A DNA stretch of 58,589 nucleotides, the filler included, from Dirinaria sp. TL-2023a (lineage: Eukaryota): the NCBI GenBank assembly GCA_051941275.1. It is 4 parts of 4 records of this genome, joined end to end, with 100 filler letters (N's around TTAATTAATTAA, not from the genome) between each part and the next. Parts side by side here need not be neighbours in the genome. Positions count along the whole stretch, not along the records: positions 44,044 to 58,589 come from JAVEBF010000598.1; 3 more parts are not named here. One strand, given 5' to 3'. How positions within the stretch are numbered: position 1 is the first letter of the stretch; each line of letters starts with the position of its first letter. This document shows positions 14,604 through 58,589 of this stretch, piece after piece. The notes under the pieces were generated by a model. That model was not told where the DNA came from and made no database searches. It saw only the letters and a list, made by a program, of their open reading frames with translations. Made by a program: the position numbers and the translations under genes.

Positions 14604-14703
14604 NNNNNNNNNNNNNNNNNNNNNNNNNNNNNNNNNNNNNNNNNNNNTTAATTAATTAANNNNNNNNNNNNNNNNNNNNNNNNNNNNNNNNNNNNNNNNN
14701 NNN
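14604..14703. other. artificial contig spacer N44-TTAATTAATTAA-N44
   Basis: 100-bp linker with stops in all six frames; three identical copies in the window. Confidence 0.98.
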
Positions 14704-29284: not shown

Positions 29285-29384
29285 NNNNNNNNNNNNNNNN
29301 NNNNNNNNNNNNNNNNNNNNNNNNNNNNTTAATTAATTAANNNNNNNNNNNNNNNNNNNNNNNNNNNNNNNNNNNNNNNNNNNN
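29285..29384. other. artificial contig spacer N44-TTAATTAATTAA-N44
   Basis: Same linker; preceded by a 20-T run (29265-29284). Confidence 0.98.
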
Positions 29385-43943: not shown

Positions 43944-44043
43944 NNNNNNNNNNNNNNNNNNNNNNNNNNNNNNNNNNNNNNNNNNNNTTAATTAATTAAN
44001 NNNNNNNNNNNNNNNNNNNNNNNNNNNNNNNNNNNNNNNNNNN
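43944..44043. other. artificial contig spacer N44-TTAATTAATTAA-N44
   Basis: Third identical linker. Confidence 0.98.
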
Positions 44044-44044
44044 C

Positions 44045-44362
44045 TCGGATCAACTCAAGCTTGCCAAGCGAATCGAACGGCTCTTGTCTCCAGAACGTGG
44101 GTCTCTCATCCTTGGCCGCCAGATTGGTAGCAGTGTGCCTGGGGAATATAATGCTGTGGACAATAATGGAACACGCTTTTCGCATGACATTGCCTCCTTT
44201 CGCCGGCTCTGGGATCAGGTAGCGGAGGAAGTTGGGCAAGGGTGCAAGTTTCGGGTGGAAGCCACAATGGATGAAGAAGAGCTCGGAGAGAATAAGAGCC
44301 AGGGACAGCATTGGGCAGAGCCCAATATTAAGAGAATACGGTTTGGAGTATGGAGGGAGTAG
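44045..44362 (+). CDS. 3' fragment of a fungal SAM-dependent methyltransferase (AusD/Trt5-like C-terminus); 5' part is off-contig
   Basis: Open from the contig edge: DQLKLAKRIERLLSPERGSLILGRQIG...FSHDIASFRRLWDQV...RIRFGVWRE*, matching the recalled C-terminal pattern of this family. Confidence 0.7.
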   Translation, partial: SDQLKLAKRIERLLSPERGSLILGRQIGSSVPGEYNAVDNNGTRFSHDIASFRRLWDQVAEEVGQGCKFRVEATMDEEELGENKSQGQHWAEPNIKRIRFGVWRE

Positions 44363-44564
44363 CCACCTCACCCGCTGGTTGCTTACCTTTGTGTGTGGTT
44401 GGCGTGAGTGATCATCCCCAGGATCGGCAGGTATCAATCCCTAATCGTAGGGACGAGAAGCAAATGGTGAAGACCTAATTCTGTCGATTTAATGCATTTG
44501 CATTGACAGCTTATGCGCAGCCCAAGCTTACAAACGGGATATCCATCTTGTATGTTAGAAGATG

Positions 44565-45972
44565 CTATAATTTGCTTCTTATCCATGCCTCAACCGCTGC
44601 TGCAATCTCAATATTATTCTTCTCCAAAAATAGGAAATGAGCGTTTCCATGTATTCCAAAGGCAGGAAGATTTAAGAAATCCACCATTACACCTGCTTGC
44701 TGCAAATAACGAACCGTGCAATAGTCGTACACAGCGTGATAGCTAGCTTCGGACGTAACTACCATCTGCGGTATTCTTGCCAGGTTAGGCAGCTTTTTCG
44801 CCGGGGAGGCCTGCATGACACATTCGCTCAAGCCTGGCCCTGCGGGAGGAATTCTCTTGCGAGATAAGTCTGTAGCTGGATCTACCACGGGAGGACTGTA
44901 AGTAATGGGAATATTGGTGAGGCCATAAGGACGGGTAACAGCGGTACTATTTGTGCTGACGCGATCTTCAAACGGCGGACCTTGCGGCTCAAGACTGACG
45001 AGTGCCTTGACTAACGCGGGTCGTGCATCTGCGATGAGGAATCCGAGTGTCCCACCTTGGGAATGCGTGATGATGGTTGCAGGACCGATGCGGTCTAGTA
45101 AAGCAGCACCGGCACGTTGATTAATACTCTCCACAATGACCTGAGAGTTTTTTCAGCCCTACAGACAAAGGCACAGGTCAATAGTAAAAGAAGGGCAATG
45201 ACTGATTTTGCATACCGTGTTATTCTGGAATTGAACTTGAGAAGCATAGAATGCATCAAAAACAGGGTCGCCTTTTTCTCCGGTCTTGAAAATTTGTGAT
45301 AAGTTAGCTCTAATTCGATCCATCACAAGATCACACTAAACATTACCCCGGGCCATTGTGTGTGCAAGCGGGCCTGAGGCCACAGATCCGAATTCTGAAC
45401 TCTAGTGAAGCGCTTCGAAATAGTTTCTGCTGAAAGTGTGGCCAATGTGCCACTGCCAGGCATGTAAGCTGATCGACCGCGTTGCGGCTGATCGACCAAA
45501 AAAACCGTATACCGTCTCCGAAGGAACCATGAGGCCCATCCTTCCCTGCCATCAGGTGTGTTGAGCCAATTCTATATTCGCAGCGTCCAATCACTCAGCG
45601 CCAATTTAGTAAGGCGATACACTTGCCTGCATTCACGGTGAAATGGCTGCTAAACTTACAGTGCCGGTTTGTGCCTGGCCATGTATGAAAATAATAGCTT
45701 CTTGATGCTTCGCTCCGCCTTGTGGTACAAGCTTCTCGACATACATCTGATCCGTGAAAAGATGCATGCCTGTGCCATCCTGTTCAATCGGTCAGCCAGC
45801 ATAGGCATCTATCGGAGATGGATAGGCAAATCACATCGACGTATTCCCCGCCAACGTAAAAGTAGCTCCGTGTGGCCAAAGCTTCAGGACTACGATTTGG
45901 ATTCAAGGGAGAAGTGGCGAGTACGAATGCACGAGGCATCACGACCAGCAACGGCCACATGAGACCAATCAT
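44565..45972 (-). CDS. Probably secreted alpha/beta-hydrolase (esterase/lipase-like); exons 45972-45835, 45779-45660, 45571-45347, 45284-45216, 45140-44565
   Basis: Manual splicing gives a stop-free protein: hydrophobic leader, [75 protein letters not shown], nucleophile THSQGG and GIHGNAH. The start could be 45972 or 45960. Confidence 0.9.
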
Positions 45973-48522
45973 CTTAATAACTAACGACATCATGCTCGAC
46001 GGAGCTACCGTCCTGCGATTCTGTTGAGAATGGAACGACGAAAGAGCTCGTGGAGCGCTGGACTGCTCTGATGCGCCTATATGGAAGATGTGGGGATTAA
46101 ACCGCTCCACCAACGATCAAGAATCATAGCTGGTGTGGTGGGTGGAAATCTGCATTAGTGCAAAGCTAATGTAGTCGTACCTACATGTATGCAGTAATCT
46201 CGGTGATTGGTCATCAACAACTCTACCTGACAGTCGATTGTATATAGTAGTGTTACTTGTGAAGATGCTGGGATCTAATACTCTCTCGCCAAGTAGTCAT
46301 GATTGACTCGATAAAGAATGTTGCGTAACAGAGCGGTAAGACATTATTCGCAGTAAGAGCTCGCTTACTATACCATGTAATAGGCAGCGCGTTGACAGAA
46401 TTCATTCCCTACTATTGGAGAGTCGGGAATGAAAGTGCTCGGACTCGGCCAATGTCTTAGGGAGAGGTCGCAGACCAAGCCGCTTCATACGATGAAAGAA
46501 GATTATTAGATCGAGGCCTCCAAAATGCTGTCGCTAATACAGATCTTCCATTTGCGTGTCCAAGCCATCTGTGCCAAGGTTTTTCTCTTTTGATCTTCGA
46601 GTAATGTAATCAGAATATTTCTCCAAATAATCCGAGTCTAGATTGTAGCTTACTGTATTTGCGCACGTAGAAAGCAGTTTCGGAACTGCTTTCTACTGTG
46701 GACAAAGTGGAGGGGAGGAAGGGTAAGTTTAACCGAGAAGCGCCTCATCAAACTTGTGGTAGGGACTGGGGCATAGCTGAAGCTCTTCCATGACGGATCA
46801 TCAACACTGTTTCACCTTCAAAGCTTCCGGTATCATCCATCATATAACTTTCTAATAATCAGATGAGGCTTATATTATAGCAATTGCAGTGGATTAATCG
46901 AGGAGCAGAACACATGCTTGTCAACGATGAGGAAGCCAATGCGCTTATCAAGGCAAAACATTCTGCGCACTACCCAATTCTCTTCGAAATCACTAGGCGT
47001 ATATCATTCTACTCTGCTCTTACATCATCATTAGTTTGCTTCACATCATGAGACGAGGCTTCAGCTCTCTCATCTGTTCCCAGCATCGTGATCTGGGATG
47101 TATTCTATGAGTCAGCGGTATACTCCGCAGTATTTTATATGAGTCAGGGACATCTTCAGCAGTGGTCCAAGTCGGAATTCGAGCCGCAATATTCCATTCA
47201 CTCTTGGACTCGCTCGCCATACTGAAATGAATATGGTTCTCATCATCTTCGAAGAAGAACGAGAAACAAGCGTAAAAATCGGCCTTAATCTGGACGCTTC
47301 TCACGATCTACGATGACAACTCAAATGACTACCTGACTAGAGTCCCTTCCCATTCCCATTACATTGAAAATGCAACAACTTTATTATTTTCCGAACTTCA
47401 ATGCAACACTCTTCGACTTTCGCTAGACAGTAAAATATCATCGGATCAGGAACTATATTTTCACACACTCCAGCTCTCTCGTCATCATCATCTCCTTTCG
47501 ATAAAATGATATTTAAGAGCCTTGTTTTTCTATGACTGAGAAGAAGCCTTGCACCAAAAGTTGAACTTATAAGACATCATCTTTCCAAGACCATATCAGC
47601 GCGCTAGAGATATTTCCTCGTCAAAGTTGTTTCTGACAGTAAGGGAACGATATCTCGCCTCCATTGCGCCAGACTTTATTCATCGTTGAATTCCTACGTC
47701 GGGCGCTTTTCTGACCACGAAGCGTTCAAGTTCGGAGATGTCTTCGTCCACGCTTTCCGCGAGATTCAGTACATTATTCACTCCTTTGATACCTGGAGAC
47801 AAAACTTTATAACACCTCAGAGTGCTGCAGCTTTGAGATCAGGCTTTGGGAAGAATTTAATGATCCACTCGTACATTTAGTGCTAAGTTCTTTGCGGAGT
47901 CTTCATCTTCATTTTCTTCCTCTTGGAAGTCTCGTTGACGTGATTGATCATTCACCTCAATGAAATTGTTGAAGAAGATCAGAAAAATCAGATTGAAAAA
48001 CGCTCGAAATGCGCGATTGCTCCATGCTTGACATTATATATATACCGTTCGACACTAGACATTTATCTCAGCTTTCTCCACTGCTAGGCAAACCCTCCAT
48101 CGTGTCCGTTTCAAATCAAATAGTACCTGCAAATCTACGACAAATACATGCTCCATTCCTAGATCATCATGACGAAGATATCTAGGCGCCCAGCTAAGTC
48201 TAAGTCGAAGGCGAAAGTTCACTGCGGAGATCACGAATTAGAGTGCAAAGTTTGCCATGACACTGGCGATTAGGAACTTGCAACGTCCCTTTAAGAAGTA
48301 AGATTTTTTTCTTGCTAGGTTAATCGAGACTATTAGGTTGATCTTCAGAGAATGAAGATACTTCAGTAAGTAACGTTATCGTTTCTTCGAGCTGCGAGAT
48401 GGCAGTACTCGTACGTTCATTTCCAGATCAAGCATCAATGTATATCAAGCGGGATATCCCTGATGGATGATACGATAAATTTGAATTGAGGAATTCTCCC
48501 TTCTCAGTGCAATTGCATCTGA

Positions 48523-49040
48523 CGCGTAAGAACGCTCAGTCTTCGTATCGAGCCGATTGCGCAGAAGATTGACAAGACCACCTGGTCGGACATATATTAT
48601 ATCAATCATTACGCAAATCGAGATACATGCTACAAGGACTATTCCAAGCTAGCCGAACTTCTAGATCGGGAGGTACTCAAGAGCACCCGGGTCGTATTCT
48701 GCACCATCCCATCTTGCAGAACTGCAGCGCTGTGTTAGGAGGTTGGAGTCGATGGAGATCTCAATTGGTACCCTCAATTCTCAATACACACGGACTTAAC
48801 TAAGACTACACTTTGAAAAGCCTGACGCTCATGGTAATTTCCCGAGCGAAAATGTCTAATTCGGACCGGACCACCGGCCTACCTGTCATCGCTATCCCAA
48901 CGAGGTGGCACAATGAACTAAATAGGCAAGCGGTCATGGTCCTCATCCTAGTGGATCTGATTAACTTTCTATGATGATGCTATCATTGAAGCTCTGCACC
49001 ATTATTAGAGACTTTTCTTACCCCTAATTATTTATCTGAC
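48523..49040 (+). pseudogene. Probable decayed Upf1-like (SF1) helicase fragment
   Basis: YKDYSKLAELLDREVLKSTRVVFCT (48631-48705) parallels [24 protein letters not shown] of intact UPF1. GAC CAC CGG C CTA CCT GTC ATC (48869-48890) resembles a frameshifted GDHxQLxPVI. Stops and frameshifts are present. Confidence 0.4.
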
Positions 49041-50221
49041 GGCGAAATGGAGTTCAATACACATCAGACCATCAGCAGTCGCAGATGATTTTAATCTTGT
49101 TCGCCCTGGGTGTTACATCCTTCAAGCTCAAGAGAGAAAAGATGTTCATATACAGAACTAGTTTATCTCAAAACAACTGATGTCAAAGGTGAACAAGACA
49201 TGATGAATGCTGTGACACAGAGGGTGATGGAAGAGTTGAAAGAAATTGATCATTTACCAAAAGATCTCGGACTCCGGAGCGCTTGAGAGTATGGTTAGCG
49301 AGCTTCATCGATCAAGAGAAGAGCAAGAACAAGTACCTGGATGCTTTAGTTAGATAGAAAATTCAGCGTAATTTTCCGTCAGATGTCTCTGTGTGGCAGA
49401 GAATTGCTCTGCTCAATTGTCAAGGATCTTAGGAGTATGGTCCGAGAATTCGAGGCTGGGCGAGGATATGAATTTCGATTTGAGTCGGCGCCAGAGGGGT
49501 GATCCCATTCAAAATTCGCCAAGAGAACGAACAACAAATTCTTGAAATCTATGAGCTCAGGAGTTAACTTTCCAGGTCAAAGATGAGACATGAATTCAAC
49601 TGTGATAGAGAAGTACAACTAAAGAATAAATAGCACAAAGCTTCAAGATCGCTGCTGACCGAGAGACTCCAGACGAGACACCTTTAAGGGCTTCTGAACC
49701 TGCTCGATCATCGTTCTTTTTTGTATGAATTTCAATTCCATACTTCTCGGACCATGACGCTCATGAATACCCGTATTTCCGATGACCAGGAAAAATGCTC
49801 CAAGGCAAGCGCAGAGTCCACCAACACAAATTCGCGCGCGTTCTCAGATGAACGACTATCACAGCGTCGTCATGTTGAACTCCGCATCCTTTGAAAGACG
49901 TTACATTGGCTAGGATTCACAGAAGAATGGAGGCAATTTGCAACGGCGAAAATAGAGCGTCTATCCGAGAGACTGGATTTTGGAATTGTTCGATATCATC
50001 GTTGAAGAATCAAAATCTCCAAGGTAATCAGCACACTCGAAAATGCCTGGAGTACTTCAAAGCCAATCAATAATTCAATCGAACAGTCATCACACAAAAT
50101 CAGGCAAGGAATGGAAGCGAGACTGCTCTTAAGTGTTCAATACTCATTATCCCAGACGCCTTATACTCAGCTTAAGAAGTGATTATCGACATAAACCTTC
50201 TCTACTCATTCACAGACGGAC

Positions 50222-51049
50222 GAACCGGATCGGCTCCTGAACGTGTACCTCATCGCCTATGCCATCTGGCATGTTCGTTCGTTGTTCTTTTCGGGCGGCA
50301 AATAAAAGCTCAAGAGTTCGAAAAAGCGCGGCGCTCGAGCATTAGAAGCTGATGGTTTCGATGTCGCAGAGAATCGCGAGAACAAGATGAACGAGATCAT
50401 TCTCGATCTCGTCAAATGCAATATTCTCGAGATGTTTGAACGTATCATTTGTGACGAGATTCAGAAAATGAAACATCACAACACTCTCGCTCACAAGATC
50501 ATCGTCGATCTTTGAGCTCTCATTATTAATTTTCTGACGATCATCTCAATTATGAATAAATCGTTCGATCTTAACGATCTTTTTCGACTGCTGTATCAGC
50601 TCGATTGAATCGATTTCGAAAAGCAAGATTATTTCTTCTCGCTCGAAGACTACGCAGCAGTCTGAGAAACAATGAAGAAATAAACATCGCACGATTCTCA
50701 GATGCGTCAGATTCGATAAGTTTTAAACTCAGTATTTTTCCGTCGTCTCGTCGTTTCTCTCGTGCAAAAGACTCAGATTAATCTCGAAATCGCTAAAACT
50801 CTATTTTCGTCGATTCTCAATCTGCTTCAGATGCAACGAATTTTTGCGTTCGAAGTGAAGAGATCGAAAGATCGTTTGATTCGATTTGAGTAGAATCTGT
50901 CTCACTTCGAATGTGTGCACGCCGAGCTTTTGACGAGAAAAGCAGAGACGAAGCTGTATAAAAGAATTCATGATCAAGTGACTCAAAATCTATATCAAGA
51001 GTATGATGAGAAAAAGAAATATCAATTTTCGTCAAAATGTAATATCTGA
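50222..51049 (+). pseudogene. Decayed SNF2-family helicase/ATPase (motifs II-III and downstream), point-mutated
   Basis: One frame of about 276 codons with about 7 stops and no apparent indel. FERIICDEIQKMK (motif II, DE at 50453) and NFLTIISIMNKSFDL (motif III LTATPxxN, 50531-50563), then ILNLLQMQR and EL...ETKLY. Confidence 0.75.
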
Positions 51050-54000
51050 TGCATTGAGTGCATCAGATCTTCACAGTCAATCGTCGCAAAGTTCTCATCT
51101 TTTGTGATTGATCTTCCACACAATGACTCGTGAAGCTGTATCTGATCAACCTCGAGTATAATGTGATGAGTATTCGCTCTAGTCATCAGAATTCTGAGCG
51201 CGAAATGCCCGTCGATGCTTTCAACGACAAGGCGTCAATCTCTGATCTTTTCTACACAGCTAACAACTAGCATCACAAGTGGGAACATGAACACTGTTTA
51301 TGCTCAGAAATCTCGACAATCATGTACCACCAGCGTCTATCCACGGATACAGTTCAGAGACGAAAAGTCCAAAAAGAGCAAGAATTAACGATCTTACAGA
51401 AAAGGCGTGGTTCGTTATGATGCGCAAGGCATAAACCCAGCAACAGGTAGATTTGACTTTTCGCGTCTTGCACGGACTCCGCTCATATCGGATTCTTAAT
51501 CGGCTCAGCGCTGGATTCTATTTCCGTACTGAAAGGAATGTTGCGGAGCGTTATTGCAACTTTTCGAAGAAGATTAAAGACGTTGAAGTCGTTCATAAAA
51601 CAGATATTCTATCAGTTAGTGTCTGACACAGAGCAGGAACGAATGAATTTTATCACATGGAATCAATCTATCTCAATCTGTATCAACCGGGCAGTCAACA
51701 ATGATGGCGCAAATCAGGAGCATAGAGAACTAGAGGATCATATCCAAGTATGGTCCGAGAGAAGCTAGGGAGAAACCAGCAAAACCATGCAAGGAGTCAT
51801 ACTCAACAGCTCGTTCATGAACATCGGTTGCTATAAATTCTTCTCAAGATAAATTCGCCACTTTATTGGATATCCTCGCAATGAACGAAAATTGGACGTC
51901 AGAAATCGTCGATTCTCTGCAACACAAAGGACTTTCCGAACGCCGCATTCGACTAGACGGAAATCATTGACGAGCTGAGCGAAGATCTACCAGACGATCT
52001 CTCAGGAGATATCAATGTTATTTGCACTGTTTTGGTTCTAATTTATTTTTGCAGTCACTTTGTCGAAGGTATCACCTGGGGGACTGTGCAGAAGAAGATG
52101 GACTCGGAGAACATTAATATGATTCAGAAAAACTCGCATTCGATCTCTACATGACCCATAGAGATGTATATCTCAACTGATTTCGCAAAACGATTGAAGA
52201 CTCGTCATCAAGGATCAAGCTTGACGTAAATCGTGATATGGAAACCGAATCATTTAACACTTTCAAGAATTTGGGCAACAAGGCTTCTCATATATCATGG
52301 GTCATGAAACCTGGAGAGATTAGAACAAGGTCACACATGGACGACGAATGCGAAGAGATGTGTCGGAGTATCAGTATGATATCGTTATACACTCGTCCTC
52401 GCTGATGAACCATTCCCATCACAATCAGTTGCTATCAAAAGAGAAAAATCACAAACGAGGATAACGATCTAAGTAAAGCTCCATAGTTGACAAGATCTTA
52501 ACAAGGTCGCACTGTTAAACAATGCGCGTTTCTTCAGGAAGACAAATGATCAAAGAAAGCGCTCGTGACCCAAAAAAATATATTCCGAGATCTCAATTTT
52601 AAAAAAAATGAGCATAAACAACGGTGGAAGTTTCAGAAGAGGTGAGATATATAAAAATATGATTTGCTAATTCAACAACTACAAACAGTCTTTGAATGCT
52701 AAGAGTCGAACATTTCGAAGAAAAGAATCGTTCTTCTTGCGAAATTAAAAGTAGAAAGATTATCTAGATCGCAATCAAAGATCAAAAACACAATAAAGAG
52801 CGACGCTGAAGAACAGAGAGATAGTACTACGACTGATATTTAAAAAACGGTATCAGATGCCCACTTGACAGAGTGCAGATCAATATACATTATCTCACAT
52901 CTCATACATTCTCACTAGCTGAATCTAACCTATCTGGCCCATTATTTACACAAATAATGACGATACCGTACGACAACTTAGATTTCTCATAGCTCTACTT
53001 CTCACGTTGATAGATCAAGTCGGAATCCGCCACTCTCAATAAGTTTCAAATTATCAAAAGTCTCTCAAACCCAATGATCCAAATTCGTTTCTTCACATCG
53101 AAGCCTTAAAAATCGTTGTGAACTTCCGGTCGCCGAATCCCTTCATTACACTCTGTTGTGGTAGCAGGACAAGAGCAACCAAAAGGATTACTGCATAAAA
53201 TTGTAGAAGATGGTAATACGAGGAAAGAATACAGTACAGAGCAGAGCGAGGAGAATGAAGAGAGAGAAACAAACGCTCTAATTGATTCCTGGAGGTACTA
53301 TATTAATCTCATCAATCTCTCTACTATCAAAGCGTTTTCTGTCTTCTCGCGCACATCAGACTCTCTACTTTGTCCTGAATGATGGCCTTGCTCATAATTT
53401 CAGCAAAACTTTTTTTTTTTGAACTATAATCTAGCTCGATTAAAGATACGGTTCAACATTACCCATTCACGCCAACCGTTTCAAGTTTCCCTTACACTCT
53501 TCAGTTTAGATATTTTTTCGCTGGACATCAAACCTCAAAAATTCCATCATCCGGTCTTCTTCATGCCTCCCAAGCCAGAAATCGAAATTTTCAAATGAAG
53601 AAGACTAAATCGATCTTAACTTCCGTCGCATCTCAGAAATCAGAAATTCCAATCCGCACTTCGAGCAGAGTAACTTCTTGCCTTGAAAAAATTCTTGCCC
53701 AAAAAGCGTTACAGCGATGAAGAAGCTGATGTCATAATTGTAAAGCTCAAATTAAACCCGAGTTATGACAGCCAATTCTGGTTGAAACTTCGTGACTTGA
53801 AGGTGAAGAAATTAGAAGTTAAAAATCGATTGAATAAATTCGAAGGCAGGCTCACGAACTTGGACAAGCAGGAATTCCCACAAAGCATGGAGCTACGACG
53901 GCAGCACAGTCGAGTTAAAGACCTCAAAAACAAGGAAGTTCTGACTTGGTAGCTAAGATTGAGTAGCTTGAGAGCTGAGCGGGACACGCCAAAGGACAAG

Positions 54001-54290
54001 AGTATTTCATTTGTGATTGGAATCACGCTGCCACTGAGTTTCTTTCGATTGAAGTATTTTGCAGTCTGAGCATCAAGAGATACCTGTGCTTCAATGGCAC
54101 AAGGATGCAAACTTGAGAGCCGAACAAAAAACGAGGTACCTACCTACTAAGGCACTTACCTCACCAAAGACGCCAGACTACTGAGAAGCCCACAGACATC
54201 GTTAGACGTCGTCAGACTTTGTAAAAAGATGATGTTGTCGCGGGTCTGCCGGAATTTCATGCAATATATTCCTGCAGAACATAATTTATC

Positions 54291-55673
54291 TTCAATGACG
54301 GACACTTTCAGCTTGAGCTAGCGAAACAACTGAGAAAACTTGCCGCCGAAAAAGCGTGACTCCTTATACGTACCCACTCTTCCACGATTGGGCGGTAACT
54401 TTGATCGAGCTGTGTCGAGAGTTTGTACTCCTTTTTCCATATATTCTTAGGTTCTAAAATATTATCCAGATGATGGAAAATTATACTTCAATCGCACAGA
54501 ATTTGCAACCAGAAAAATAACAAAGATATGAAAGCTGTCTGTGGGACGGAATGTTACGAAACTCGCGAATTGTCACTTGTCAGAAAAATCCTCAATAACC
54601 ATCAGCTGAGACCTTTCCGACGCCGCGCGAACAATGTAAAGTTCGAAAAGTCTGCACCAAGTTCTACTCTCTTTTCTGATCGATCACTTTCGTCGTCGAG
54701 TTCTCGAGTGAGATCTTTATCTTTGAGTATCTCGAGTTAAAAAAGCTAAGACAGTCGATATATCGGCCATAATATATGTTCTCAAAAAGCTCCGAGGAAA
54801 CGTGAAACTTCAATGGATCAGTTACTTTGATCAAGAAAATTCAATAGCGCAAACCAAGACTAGAAAAGTATGAAAGCCACAAGCCACGTCGCAGAATAAT
54901 GAGAGATTATTCTACGTTTGATCTTGAGCTGGCAAAGAAACTCAACGCTCGAAAAGCGGAAACCAAGCTTGTTAAAGCAAGTGTTTTTTATGGTTTAAGC
55001 TGGTACCATACAGGAATCCACGGTTCAGACACTGCTGAGTATCTCTCCTTTTAAATCCGTATTAGCTTTTTCCGCGGTCTATATTTCAATTGCTATCTCT
55101 CCTTCAATCATCTCGATCATTCAATCAAAGAAATCTACGAAAAACCAGAAAAACCCATTATCAGCGGACATTCGAAGAGCTTATTCTTAGTAATGAGTTC
55201 CAATAACGAACTTTTTCAGCTTGAGCTAGCAGAGCGGCTGAAGACGCAAGCCGAACGCTCACAAAAAAAGAATGTACCGCTCTGAACCTGCTTTTCATAT
55301 GACTAACAGTGTACACGTTACACGATTTACTCTTCAAACACTGCGCATTTATTCTTTTTTCCAGAATTCTAAGCGTGGAGACTCAGTTCGACATTGAAGA
55401 GCAATTATTAGACAATCTCATCATCTCCCCTCTCACAAGTGTCCCTGCTGGATTTTATTTTCTGAATTTGAGATGTTTATATAGAAGAATATCTGCGCTT
55501 AAATCGCATCGTCAATTCAAATCAAGAGTCGAGAGAATAAGCAAAATTCAGTGTTTGTTTAAATTGAGACTGTATCAAAAATATTTGATCCAGTATATTC
55601 TTTCGGAATATCCATCTCAGATGATGTCTTCAACGACAGATACTTTTTATGTGAGCTGGCCGAGCGACTGAGA
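54291..55673 (+). repeat. Four diverged copies of a coding-like repeat F/S-N-D/N-x-x-F-x-L-E-L-A-x-x-L
   Basis: Copies at 54291-54335 (FNDGHFQLELAKQLR), 54902-54946 (RDYSTFDLELAKKLN), 55199-55243 (SNNELFQLELAERLK) and 55629-55673 (FNDRYFLCELAERLR). Confidence 0.65.
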
Positions 55674-58589
55674 AATGACGAAAAAGATCCACTTTTGCTC
55701 TATTCACCCTGTTTATGATTGAGTAATAATATTATTCAATAGCTGAGCGCTTTTTCTTTTAACTACTGTATATCTACTTTTCTAAATTTCGAGTTAATCT
55801 GTGCTTTGATTCCACTTCCAGTTAGAACGGAAAAAAATTCGAGATCTGCATCATCTGCGAAAACTCGAACATGTCTCAATCTTCGTTCGAAGTTATATTC
55901 CACAAAAACGAACACTTTGTTGCGGTTGCTAGTACCATTGGTTGTGGCGGTACTTAGTACTTGCCACCATGAACGGTGGCAATCACCGTGGCAACCGCTT
56001 GTATTTAAATGACCATTCCGTAGTTGCAAATGACAACCTTTCCATGAACCATGAACAGTACCCTACCAGACTTCGTATTCTCAAGCTGACAAAGCAATCA
56101 AGAAAGATCGACGTCGAAAGAAAAAAGGTTCCCTGAACATACACTTTCATAACTGAGACCATGAACAGAAAATTATTCTACTTAAGATCCTGTGTACGTC
56201 TTTCATTTTCTAGATTTCAAGAGATATCTGCATTTCAACCGCGAGCCATATTCCACTTACAAAAGCCGAAGAAAACCATAAGAATTTATATCCGCACGCA
56301 GAAAAGTAAAATATTTTCTCCATCTCCCATCTCTACAGTACCGTCTTCGATAATACATATTCATCAGCGGGGAGTTGTTCCAGGGGGTGCTTGCCATTAT
56401 CGCTTTGCGAAGAAGACACTAGTCAGTCAGCGGGCAGGTAGTATCTTCTTTAATTGCTTTTCAGGAGCTTCTAGACTCAACAAACAAGACACCTTCTAAG
56501 GTACCCCTAAATTCTTACATATGACTAAATTCTCATGACCAGTAGTCTCTGGCGATACCACGAGATTCATTTTTTGAGCTGGGAAAGTACCTGAAAAATT
56601 CAACATCTCAGAAGAAAGAACAAGGTTATTGAATTATAATCGTGCTGTTCTTTATGATTGAGGGCTGAGAACGTCTCAAGTCCCGCCCTTAAAATGCTGG
56701 AGGGCAGCTGTCAAGACTTATCTATGGCATGTTTCATATTTCAACTTTTCAATCATTGTCCAAGATTCATATCTATAACGAAATAAACAATGGTCCGAAC
56801 CGAGGAGCCCAAAAAGGACACACACAAGATCCAGTATCTACATCGTAAAAATCTATCATAAACTCAATCTATGCTGAATTTCTCGATTATTCCACTATTT
56901 TGACTTACTTCAATAAAAAAAGATTCTAAAATGGAACATACAGGGAGGACTATCTCCCACCCTCACCTCCTAAGCGGATTAAAGAGGAAGTAGATGAAGT
57001 ACGCCTTACCTTGAGCTATGGCCACTAGGATGAATGGATCAGGGCTAAAGGAGTCGTTGAGGACGTTACGGGAAGCTATGAAATATCTACGAGGTAACGC
57101 CTATAAAAAGACTAGTGAGGCGTATGCAAAGAGATACGCTACAATGGAAGAAGCTGGGCAGTTATTACGCAACCATGGCCTGAAAAGGGTTATCTGGTCG
57201 GATAAGAACCTTGAAGAAGCAGTTGCACAGCTGGAATGATGGCGCAAGGGCTTTTTTTTGTGTGTCTAATGGAGTTGAGGTGGAAGGAGCGGGGGTACAA
57301 CCCCCGTGGCGTCATTTCGTTAGTCAGCAAGTAGTATTTAGCTGGCGGGAGCTTTTGCTCCTTTACAAATGCATCCTGCTTTCTACCCCATTCGAATGCA
57401 CATACCTTGGTGACCAACCATTTCTAGATTGTACTTACTTAGGGGACGGTTATCTCGTCGTCAAATGCAAAGCATCTTCCTCTCATCTCATCATTTTTCT
57501 ATCATTTTGATAGCGTCAACAAACTATCAAGTCCATCGACTCGTACAGTAGTCACCATTACCAGGTTTTTTTCTTCTAGCTCTTTAGATCGTGCAAACGT
57601 TCTTTTAGCTCTTCACATCATGCAAACGATTCATCTGCCCCTCACTGTTCGATCAATCAACTCTCACTTCCATCAACACCCACTCTCTCAATCTACTTCT
57701 GTCTTGTAGAGCGTTCAATATGCCGTCGCCGCCGAACTTACTCAAAAACATAATTCATCAGACTCATCAAATCAACGATTTTGTCCTCGCTACAGATACT
57801 AGCCATTTCTATCGAAGACGTCCATGTGACTATTTACAGCATCGTGTCCACAACGCTGCGATCACCTATATTCAGAAAGCAAAGTTACAAAACACACACA
57901 AAGAGCACAGTCACACGAATAATCAATCAACTATTCCCAGAATTGAGTCACTGACAAAGTCGATCTTTAACGAAGGTCGTGAAGGACTTTTCCGCCGCTA
58001 CTGCCGAATCTAAATGCACAGATTATTATCGCTTCTTTCTTTCGAAGGGAACAGTCTCTTCGGATCTCGGTAGTTCATTTTTCACGGGCAAGACCCCCAA
58101 GCTCTGAGGAAACAGTCCCCCAGGCACCTCTATTTATGAGGAGGTAGGCCAAAATCTAAAAAACCCTATTTCGAAATGCTATTCCCCAACCACAGATAAC
58201 CCTTTCCAAAACTAGCGCAACAACTGAAAAAGCCTAACCCCCAAAGAAAGACAAAATCTCTCTGAATATACTCTTTCATGATTTTTCCGTAAACGCTACC
58301 TCACTTTTGGAGTAAACCCGAACCCAACAGCAGAGCCTCAGCAATTCTCACCAAACCATATACATATCCAATTCACCATCTTCCTCCTCATCTACTCCTA
58401 CCGTAGATCCTTTATCTGCACCACCCACCTTCCTAGATCATCACGCCCCCAAAAACCCATAGCTGATTTCCCAAAACCCCCCGCAAAAAAGAAAACATTG
58501 ATCAAAAATGCCTCCTTGCTGTTCTCACATTACCCCCCAACCCTAATCAACCAACCCAAAATATATCATCCCACCTTATCCCATATCCC

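Follow-up and report, generated by a model that had tools for sequence, protein, structure and literature searches.

Repeat-induced point mutation (RIP) represents the textbook genome defence of fungi, and surveys detect it through its CpA→TpA footprint; in Neurospora, CpC is the least favoured context. A different specificity, TpCpG hypermutation of transposons in Pucciniomycotina, was reportedly described by Hood in 2005. Outside fungi, APOBEC3G deaminates the 3' C of CC on a single strand, that of retroviral cDNA (CC→CT, GG→AG, TGG→TAG). Here we describe a locus in Dirinaria sp. TL-2023a (assembly GCA_051941275.1) at which a fragment of an SNF2-family helicase gene has lost almost all of its CC and GG dinucleotides, in a pattern that points to conversion of the 5' C of CC on both strands. 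The locus lies in a 58,589-nucleotide (nt) stretch of DNA, hereafter the window (58.6 kb), of which the hypermutated tract occupies part of the fourth and last piece (44044-58589, JAVEBF010000598.1, 14.5 kb).

Non-CpA hypermutation in fungi has a precedent in the TpCpG changes in transposons of Pucciniomycotina (Horns et al. 2012, PMC3318451). In Neurospora, RIP that depends on RID is confined to the repeat, while the DIM-2 pathway also reaches the DNA next to it; both pathways prefer CpA, and the authors therefore suggested that a separate deaminase sets the context (10.1101/115501). The RIPCAL study defined a (CpC+GpG)/(TpC+GpA) index yet reported CpA dominance, and gave thresholds for RIP of TpA/ApT >=0.89 and (CpA+TpG)/(ApC+GpT) <=1.03 (PMC2621366). 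The main text of a kingdom-wide 2025 survey mentions neither CpC nor TpC (PMC12543289). In the openly available full-text literature searched, we found no report of CpC-dominant RIP, and CpC appeared only as one of four tabulated contexts.

A tract nearly devoid of CC and GG

The features on which the analysis centres are the following.

50263..51230, no strand assigned: saturated CC/GG desert, 968 nt, GC 0.399, (CpC+GpG)/(TpC+GpA) 0.06 vs 0.78-0.91 in genic DNA and 0.84-0.91 in the gene-rich segments of the window
50345..51034, plus strand: SNF2-family helicase relic, DEAQ box plus motif III and beyond, in one frame; 6 stops (3 TGA, 2 TAA, 1 TAG)
51031..51237, plus strand: Helicase_C-like continuation shifted by one frame, found by tblastn; stops 1 TAA, 3 TGA

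The core of the tract, 50356-51207, is 852 nt long (A264, C168, G160, T260). A first-pass annotation of the sequence had counted about four CC and no GG in it by hand, and had described TC, GA and TCGA as abundant and CA/TG and CG as still common. Our recount bears this out. With expectations taken from the mononucleotide composition of 50356-51207, CC occurs 4 times (33.1 expected) and GG not at all (30.0 expected). TC is found 103 times (51.2 expected; observed/expected ratio, O/E, 2.01), GA 88 times (49.5; 1.78) and TCGA 18 times (3.0). CA (55, O/E 1.06) and TG (51, 1.05) occur at about the expected frequency and CG exceeds it (56 vs 31.5 expected, 1.78). In addition, TA is depleted (31 vs 80.5 expected, O/E 0.39), and TCG (38 vs 9.6 expected) and CGA (29 vs 9.8 expected) are overrepresented. 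Four or fewer CC, or no GG, were obtained in none of 20,000 mononucleotide shuffles, with Poisson tails of 2.7e-10 and 1.1e-13, respectively.

The CC/GG desert is real. When 852-nt windows were moved along the 58.6 kb in steps of 50, the sum of CC and GG reached its minimum of 5 in the window starting at 50351, against a minimum of 33 outside 49500-52100 and a median of 98. Loss of CC/GG is at saturation, with at least about 95% of the sites gone (5 left vs the median of 98 per 852 nt). The sliding-window comparison recommended with the annotation gave the same picture, since the mean CC/GG O/E of 500-nt windows fell below 0.4 only at 50251-50750, 50501-51000 and 50751-51250. Apart from four sites (50740, 50922, 51116 and 51150), CC is absent from 50263 to 51207 and returns at 51208, whereas GG is absent from 50355 to 51230 and returns at 51231. 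The interval first proposed, 50356..51207, is thus the core of the desert, and the full tract is larger (50263-51230). At its left edge, the C→T strand reaches about 90 nt beyond the G→A strand.

It had also been predicted that RIP indices based on TpA would miss such a tract. They do: TpA/ApT is 0.34 and (CpA+TpG)/(ApC+GpT) is 1.47, both in the non-RIP range.

The SNF2-family helicase relic

The relic SNF2 frame noticed at the outset proved to be recognisable by profile methods. A phmmer search with the relic against 1.8 billion representatives returned 24 hits at E<=1e-3 (best 2.6e-12), and SNF2-rel_dom and/or Helicase_C were present in 11 of the 16 hits that were scanned. Against a profile built from 16 intact-looking homologues, the relic scored 144.8 bits (E 2.3e-46) in one frame over 218 residues (8-225). 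Pfam searched directly gave only sub-threshold matches to the relic (SNF2 E 0.31, Helicase_C E 0.043) and a word-indexed protein search gave no match. The hallmarks of the family are a DEAQKLK box and an LTATPMxNKPxDLxGLLxLLW motif, and in the relic the DEAQ box is followed by the LTATP motif and then by Helicase_C, the order expected for SNF2 proteins. Its 230 codons include no Pro, one Gly and no Trp.

By tblastn, homology covers 50210/50366-51034 in one frame and 51031-51237 in the next, corresponding to residues 613-869 and 984-1035 of the family protein P0138 (1436 residues). The continuation was matched by P0138 (residues 984-1035, E 2e-6) and by P0125 (residues 390-456, E 3e-9), and its TGA codons at 51109 and 51124 stand opposite Trp of P0138 and P0125. 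No homology to the rest of the SNF2 gene was detected by tblastn on either side of the tract. As homology is limited to 50210/50366-51237 and no further parts of the gene lie beside it, the relic represents some 1 kb of the gene. SNF2 homology and the desert have matching ends, to within about 100 nt.

Direction and sequence context of the change

Five lines of evidence, namely replacements at family-conserved columns, codon reversion, in-silico saturation, trinucleotide counts and the lack of Pro, Gly and Trp codons described above (none, one and none), agree with the earlier proposal that the 5' C of CC was converted on both strands. The codons on which that proposal was based do fall at columns conserved in the family: ACC→ATC at 50543, CCA→TCA at 50546 and 50729, CCT→TCT at 50900, GGT→GAT at 50576 and 50870, and TGG→TGA at 50606. 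Compared with intact homologues, changes in the conserved columns are of the types Pro→Ser, Gly→Asp, Trp→TGA, Thr→Ile and Ala→Ile/Val, which are explained by C→T before C or by G→A after G. There are 17 C→T/G→A changes in these columns vs 4 reverse transitions and 5 transversions, and 11 of the 17 fall at CC/GG.

In the codon reversion test, every codon could revert at the sites permitted by each of eight context models, and the resulting rise in profile score was set against a null made by shuffling profile columns. For the window relic, CC→TC was the only model to do better than its null, gaining 113.4 bits where shuffling gave 78.7+-8.9 (z 3.9, 0 of 1000 shuffles), and this reversion repaired 11 of the 22 conserved mismatches. 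The other seven models had z between -2.5 and 1.4 (1.4 for CC→CT, -1.8 for CA→TA), and CA→TA, CG→TG and CT→TT were below their nulls.

We also applied the eight models in silico, at saturation, to 138 windows of the host's own gene-rich DNA. CC→TC/GG→GA yielded a GC content of 0.398, close to the 0.3988 of the tract itself, and no other model came as near to it in dinucleotide distance (0.0595, vs 0.127 for unmutated DNA). This corresponds to a drop in GC in the tract from about 0.51 to 0.40. The annotation had held that neither CpA-directed RIP nor APOBEC3G accounts for the tract, and the simulated distances agree, at 0.14-0.20 for CpA-type RIP and 0.105-0.113 for APOBEC3G-type CC→CT; CA→TA and CG→TG fitted worse than unmutated DNA. 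Among trinucleotides, [C]CN and N[C]C are depleted for every N, and C before A, G or T is at or above baseline. TC/GA is enriched and CT/AG is not (O/E 1.79 vs 1.03). Taken from sequence comparison, CpC→TpC on both strands is well supported as the direction and context of the change. Minor hits at CpA, which had been suggested as well, are possible in view of 3 TAA and 1 TAG in the relic with its continuation, but CA/(CA+TA) in the tract is at the genic baseline.

A second locus and related database proteins

Among metagenome contigs, three loci related to the family were recovered, L001, L002 and L003. No desert was present in L001 or L003. In L002, two features were found.

L002:1099-3516 (JAABUU010001149.1), strand not given: pseudogene of the same SNF2 family, about 800 codons, single-frame alignment to residues 70-852 of P0138 (E 6e-66)
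L002:~1651-2950, no strand assigned: CC/GG desert of about 1.3 kb, GC 0.398, (CpC+GpG)/(TpC+GpA) 0.07

This desert lies inside the pseudogene and takes up its N-terminal half, ending just before the DEAH box. L002 and the window have no DNA similarity. The reversion test again selected CC→TC (z 5.8, 0 of 500), which repaired 9 of 15 mismatches, whereas CA→TA gave z -2.5. In the part of the pseudogene with normal composition, z was below 0 for all eight models. The intact gene at L001 gave no positive model, a control that is circular as the L001 protein is in the profile. The L002 pseudogene contains 8 in-frame stops, every one a TGA; 6 stand opposite Trp of P0138, 1 opposite Glu and 1 opposite a gap. 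Such exclusive use of TGA is predicted by pure GG→GA, which can create stops from TGG only. The CpC signature is replicated at the independent locus L002.

With TGA read as Trp, the L002 pseudogene would be an open frame. It was also observed that the start of the window relic (50210-50400) and the end of the L002 desert (~2900-2950) fall at about the same point of the family protein, P0138 residues ~615-650. This is the acidic linker before the DEAQ box, at which many short database hits begin. The agreement could reflect an exon boundary or a recombination boundary, or be due to chance.

Among the 24 family hits, four (P0122, P0123, P0125 and P0131; 192-852 residues) lack Pro altogether and contain 0-1 Gly. 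Columns that hold Pro elsewhere in the family have Ser/Leu/Phe in these four, and Gly columns have Asp/Glu/Asn, whereas the content of Gln, His, Cys, Met and Arg is ordinary. Such a composition is not what CpA-type RIP leaves behind, since that process eliminates codons with CA or TG. As they keep Trp, these four proteins are probably hypermutated relics in which the gene caller read TGA as Trp. Phe, Tyr, Met, Ile, Asn and Lys together make up 40-47% of them vs 36-37% of the window and L002 relics, and other contexts may therefore also be hit there. A comparison of P0125 with genome contigs and viral contigs found no relative. Three other hits (P0132, P0136 and P0143) show general AT-rich decay, with up to 73% Phe/Tyr/Met/Ile/Asn/Lys, and this SNF2 family therefore seems to be hit often by mutational decay in fungi.

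Two further searches concerned copies of the tract. A purine/pyrimidine-coded 48-nt pattern of the conserved motif had 0 matches among metagenome contigs. An inverted 30-nt match within the window (50527-50556 with 56146-56175, 80%) was rejected as a copy and taken as chance, because its second arm has no surrounding SNF2 homology.

Partial mutation of the flanks

Reduced CC and GG extend well beyond the saturated tract.

46000..50262, no strand assigned: left flank, partial CpC-type mutation in strand-biased patches, (CpC+GpG)/(TpC+GpA) 0.44 for 46701-50262
51231..56000, no strand assigned: right flank, partial CpC-type mutation in strand-biased patches, same index 0.34-0.37

Over ~46-56 kb, CC/(CC+TC) and GG/(GG+GA) fall short of the baseline set by 214 genic windows, in most places by 2-4 standard deviations, and many values are under the lowest genic one; CA/(CA+TA) stays near baseline throughout. 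The patches in the left flank include loss of CC only at 46644-46844 and loss of mostly GG at 47244. Those in the right flank include loss of CC only at 51444 and loss of GG only at 53444-54244 and 55044-55444. No open reading frame or Pfam domain is left in the flanks, ~46-56 kb. Farther to the right, 57444-58000 has strong loss of GG (GG/(GG+GA) 0.08-0.18) and weaker loss of CC, and normal DNA lies between this patch and the main region.

Comparison with known systems

The locus shares with RIP of Neurospora and other Pezizomycotina the C:G→T:A transitions on both strands, specificity set by the 3' base, and a dead gene copy as the result. It is likewise a sharply bounded tract of about 1 kb, approximately the size of a duplicated segment, with weaker, strand-biased spread into the flanks. 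The repeat-like size of the tract (968 nt; about 1.3 kb inside a gene in L002) together with flank spread is what would be looked for in RIP, and the partial, strand-biased mutation of the flanks parallels the RID and DIM-2 observations reported for Neurospora (10.1101/115501). Unlike in canonical RIP, the target here is CpC and not CpA, and new stops are almost only TGA derived from Trp. Moreover, TpA is not created in the tract, so that GC falls only to ~0.40.

The system of Pucciniomycotina is similar in being a RIP-like, context-specific C-to-T hypermutation of fungi that does not act at CpA, and its existence illustrates that target sites vary by lineage. In that system, however, the mutated C lies between T and G, whereas here TCG is the product (38 vs 9.6 expected) and the host is an ascomycete. 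With APOBEC3G the locus has in common the CC dinucleotide, G-to-A hypermutation and changes of Trp to stop. It differs in that the 5' C is altered and both CC and GG are lost, and CC→CT fits worse than CC→TC.

Possible explanations

The reading that we favour, with moderate confidence, is enzymatic hypermutation of a RIP-like kind directed at CpC. The target is set by the 3' neighbour, both strands are affected, the tract is as long as a gene fragment, and weaker, strand-biased mutation reaches into the flanks. All of these are features of RIP, and a RIP-like process is therefore preferred. The near-complete loss of CC/GG, the retention of frame and similarity, and the sharp borders suggest an episode of enzymatic hypermutation rather than slow decay. 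In such a process, the duplication of an SNF2-family gene fragment would be sensed, and its cytosines would be deaminated by a methyltransferase-like enzyme or a deaminase with a +1 preference for C instead of the canonical A. CpC became TpC (GpG to GpA on the other strand), and CpA, CpG and CpT were essentially spared. The action was saturating on the ~1 kb fragment, which derives from a multi-copy helicase gene of the SNF2 family, and partial and strand-biased on ~4-5 kb on either side. The signature, its direction and context, its agreement with the gene fragment and its return at an unrelated locus and in database proteins are shown by the data, and dependence on duplication, premeiotic timing and the enzyme are what we infer. 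A repeat-targeted defence, as proposed in the annotation, is plausible. It is also possible, and we suggest this more tentatively, that the locus reflects an additional, hitherto undescribed pathway of the RIP type, strictly specific for CpC and with an enzyme or specificity factor unlike the CpA machinery, present in some Pezizomycotina, perhaps in lichen-forming ones.

Several observations weigh against RIP-like hypermutation at CpC. According to the kingdom-wide survey, RIP-like defences share a preference for CpA (PMC12543289), and classical low-GC RIP regions are described in two reports for the lichen fungi Xanthoria and Cladonia (PMC12542154, 10.1101/2025.11.25.690456). As relatives are reported to have ordinary AT-rich RIP, the CpC process may be a second one and not the only one of this fungus. 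No second copy of the tract was found within the window by repeat search or by blastn self-comparison. Every example was traced by means of a single gene family, so that ascertainment is biased. In the window relic, 3 of the 6 TGA stops are not opposite a conserved Trp; these stops, together with the TAA and TAG codons (3 and 1), indicate that other mutations occurred too. Finally, the reversion test of L002 was also positive for TC→TT (z 4.0) and GC→GT (z 2.9), sites that overlap C runs in part and that may represent a minor second context in L002.

The main rival is a homology-independent deaminase or aberrant methyltransferase with CpC preference, acting on heterochromatin, on a mobile element carrying SNF2, or on incoming or extrachromosomal DNA. 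A CpC signature needs no sensing of homology. Also in favour of such an enzyme are the lack of a partner copy within the 58.6-kb window and the partial mutation of ~10 kb of flank without SNF2 homology, and all clear cases come from a single gene family, as would be expected if an SNF2 element were its target. We nevertheless find it somewhat unlikely. Both strands are saturated with edges at the ends of a gene fragment, and in L002 both edges are internal to a gene that is otherwise nearly intact, which in both cases is the classical footprint of a partial duplication; the DNA deaminases known so far (APOBEC, DddA) take their specificity from the 5' neighbour and not from the 3' one. Slow decay, in which methylation at CpC would be followed by spontaneous deamination of 5-methylcytosine over a long time, agrees with the direction and context of the change, and the graded, partial loss in the flanks is also in its favour. 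It is hard to reconcile with a relic that still scores 144.8 bits in one frame after the loss of at least ~95% of CC/GG, or with borders that are sharp within tens of bases. The TGA-only stops over ~800 codons of L002 speak against it as well, as they imply a rate at CpC far above that of all other changes, and we regard slow decay as improbable.

An artefact of sequencing, base calling or assembly, for example a modified base in CpC read as T, is more improbable still. The signature recurs in another contig, which belongs to a different record, and four database proteins show it by proxy; the change is confined to ~1 kb of a 14.5-kb contig; and the relic is truncated and frame-shifted, with TAA and TAG stops. 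Ordinary CpA-type RIP or CpG decay, made to look odd by local composition, might be considered first for a host in Pezizomycotina, where RIP is common. It is refuted by the dinucleotide counts (TA O/E 0.39, TpA/ApT 0.34, CA/TG O/E 1.05, TCG 38 vs 9.6), and the CA→TA and CG→TG models performed worse than no mutation, with negative z, which leaves it practically no chance of being correct. Decay of 5-methylcytosine at CpG was rejected because CpG is not depleted (CG O/E 1.78).

Host and neighbouring sequence

The window consists of four pieces of ~14.6 kb each, separated by spacers at 14604-14703, 29285-29384 and 43944-44043, each of which contains two runs of 44 N flanking 12 bases. Pieces 1-3 are gene-rich and eukaryotic, with frames for a protein kinase, UPF1, a PI-specific phospholipase C, TYW1 and a DUF7102/SAM_6 protein. 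The UPF1 frame is 88% identical to that of Xanthoria calcicola and 84-85% identical to those of several other classes of Pezizomycotina; best matches in this comparison were 91-97%. On these similarities, the host is a filamentous ascomycete (Pezizomycotina); the nearest named class is Lecanoromycetes, the lichen fungi, to which it can be assigned only tentatively. Neither a RID nor a DIM-2 gene was found within the 58.6-kb window. Six-frame Pfam analysis of 44044-58589 gave a single weak match, to alpha/beta-hydrolase. The features neighbouring the two deserts are listed below.

44565-45152, minus strand: open frame of 195 residues with the weak alpha/beta-hydrolase match, the sole gene-like feature remaining in the fourth piece
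L002:4144-6516, minus strand: intact SF1 helicase gene (AAA_11/AAA_12) converging on the pseudogene, nearest relatives 95-97% identity

Implications

If a RIP-type pathway strictly specific for CpC exists, it would be invisible to all RIP detectors based on TpA and would stall at ~40% GC. Its relics would lack Pro and Gly, be interrupted by TGA only, at former Trp codons, and be listed as long database 'proteins', forming a class that current annotation misses or mistranslates. Deamination of C in double-stranded DNA as directed by a neighbouring 3' C would be a new enzyme specificity. The locus would also be a natural variant with which to address whether the methylase or a separate deaminase determines the target base of RIP, a question raised in the Neurospora work (10.1101/115501). 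Mutational genome defence in ascomycetes would then be more diverse than the indices in use show.

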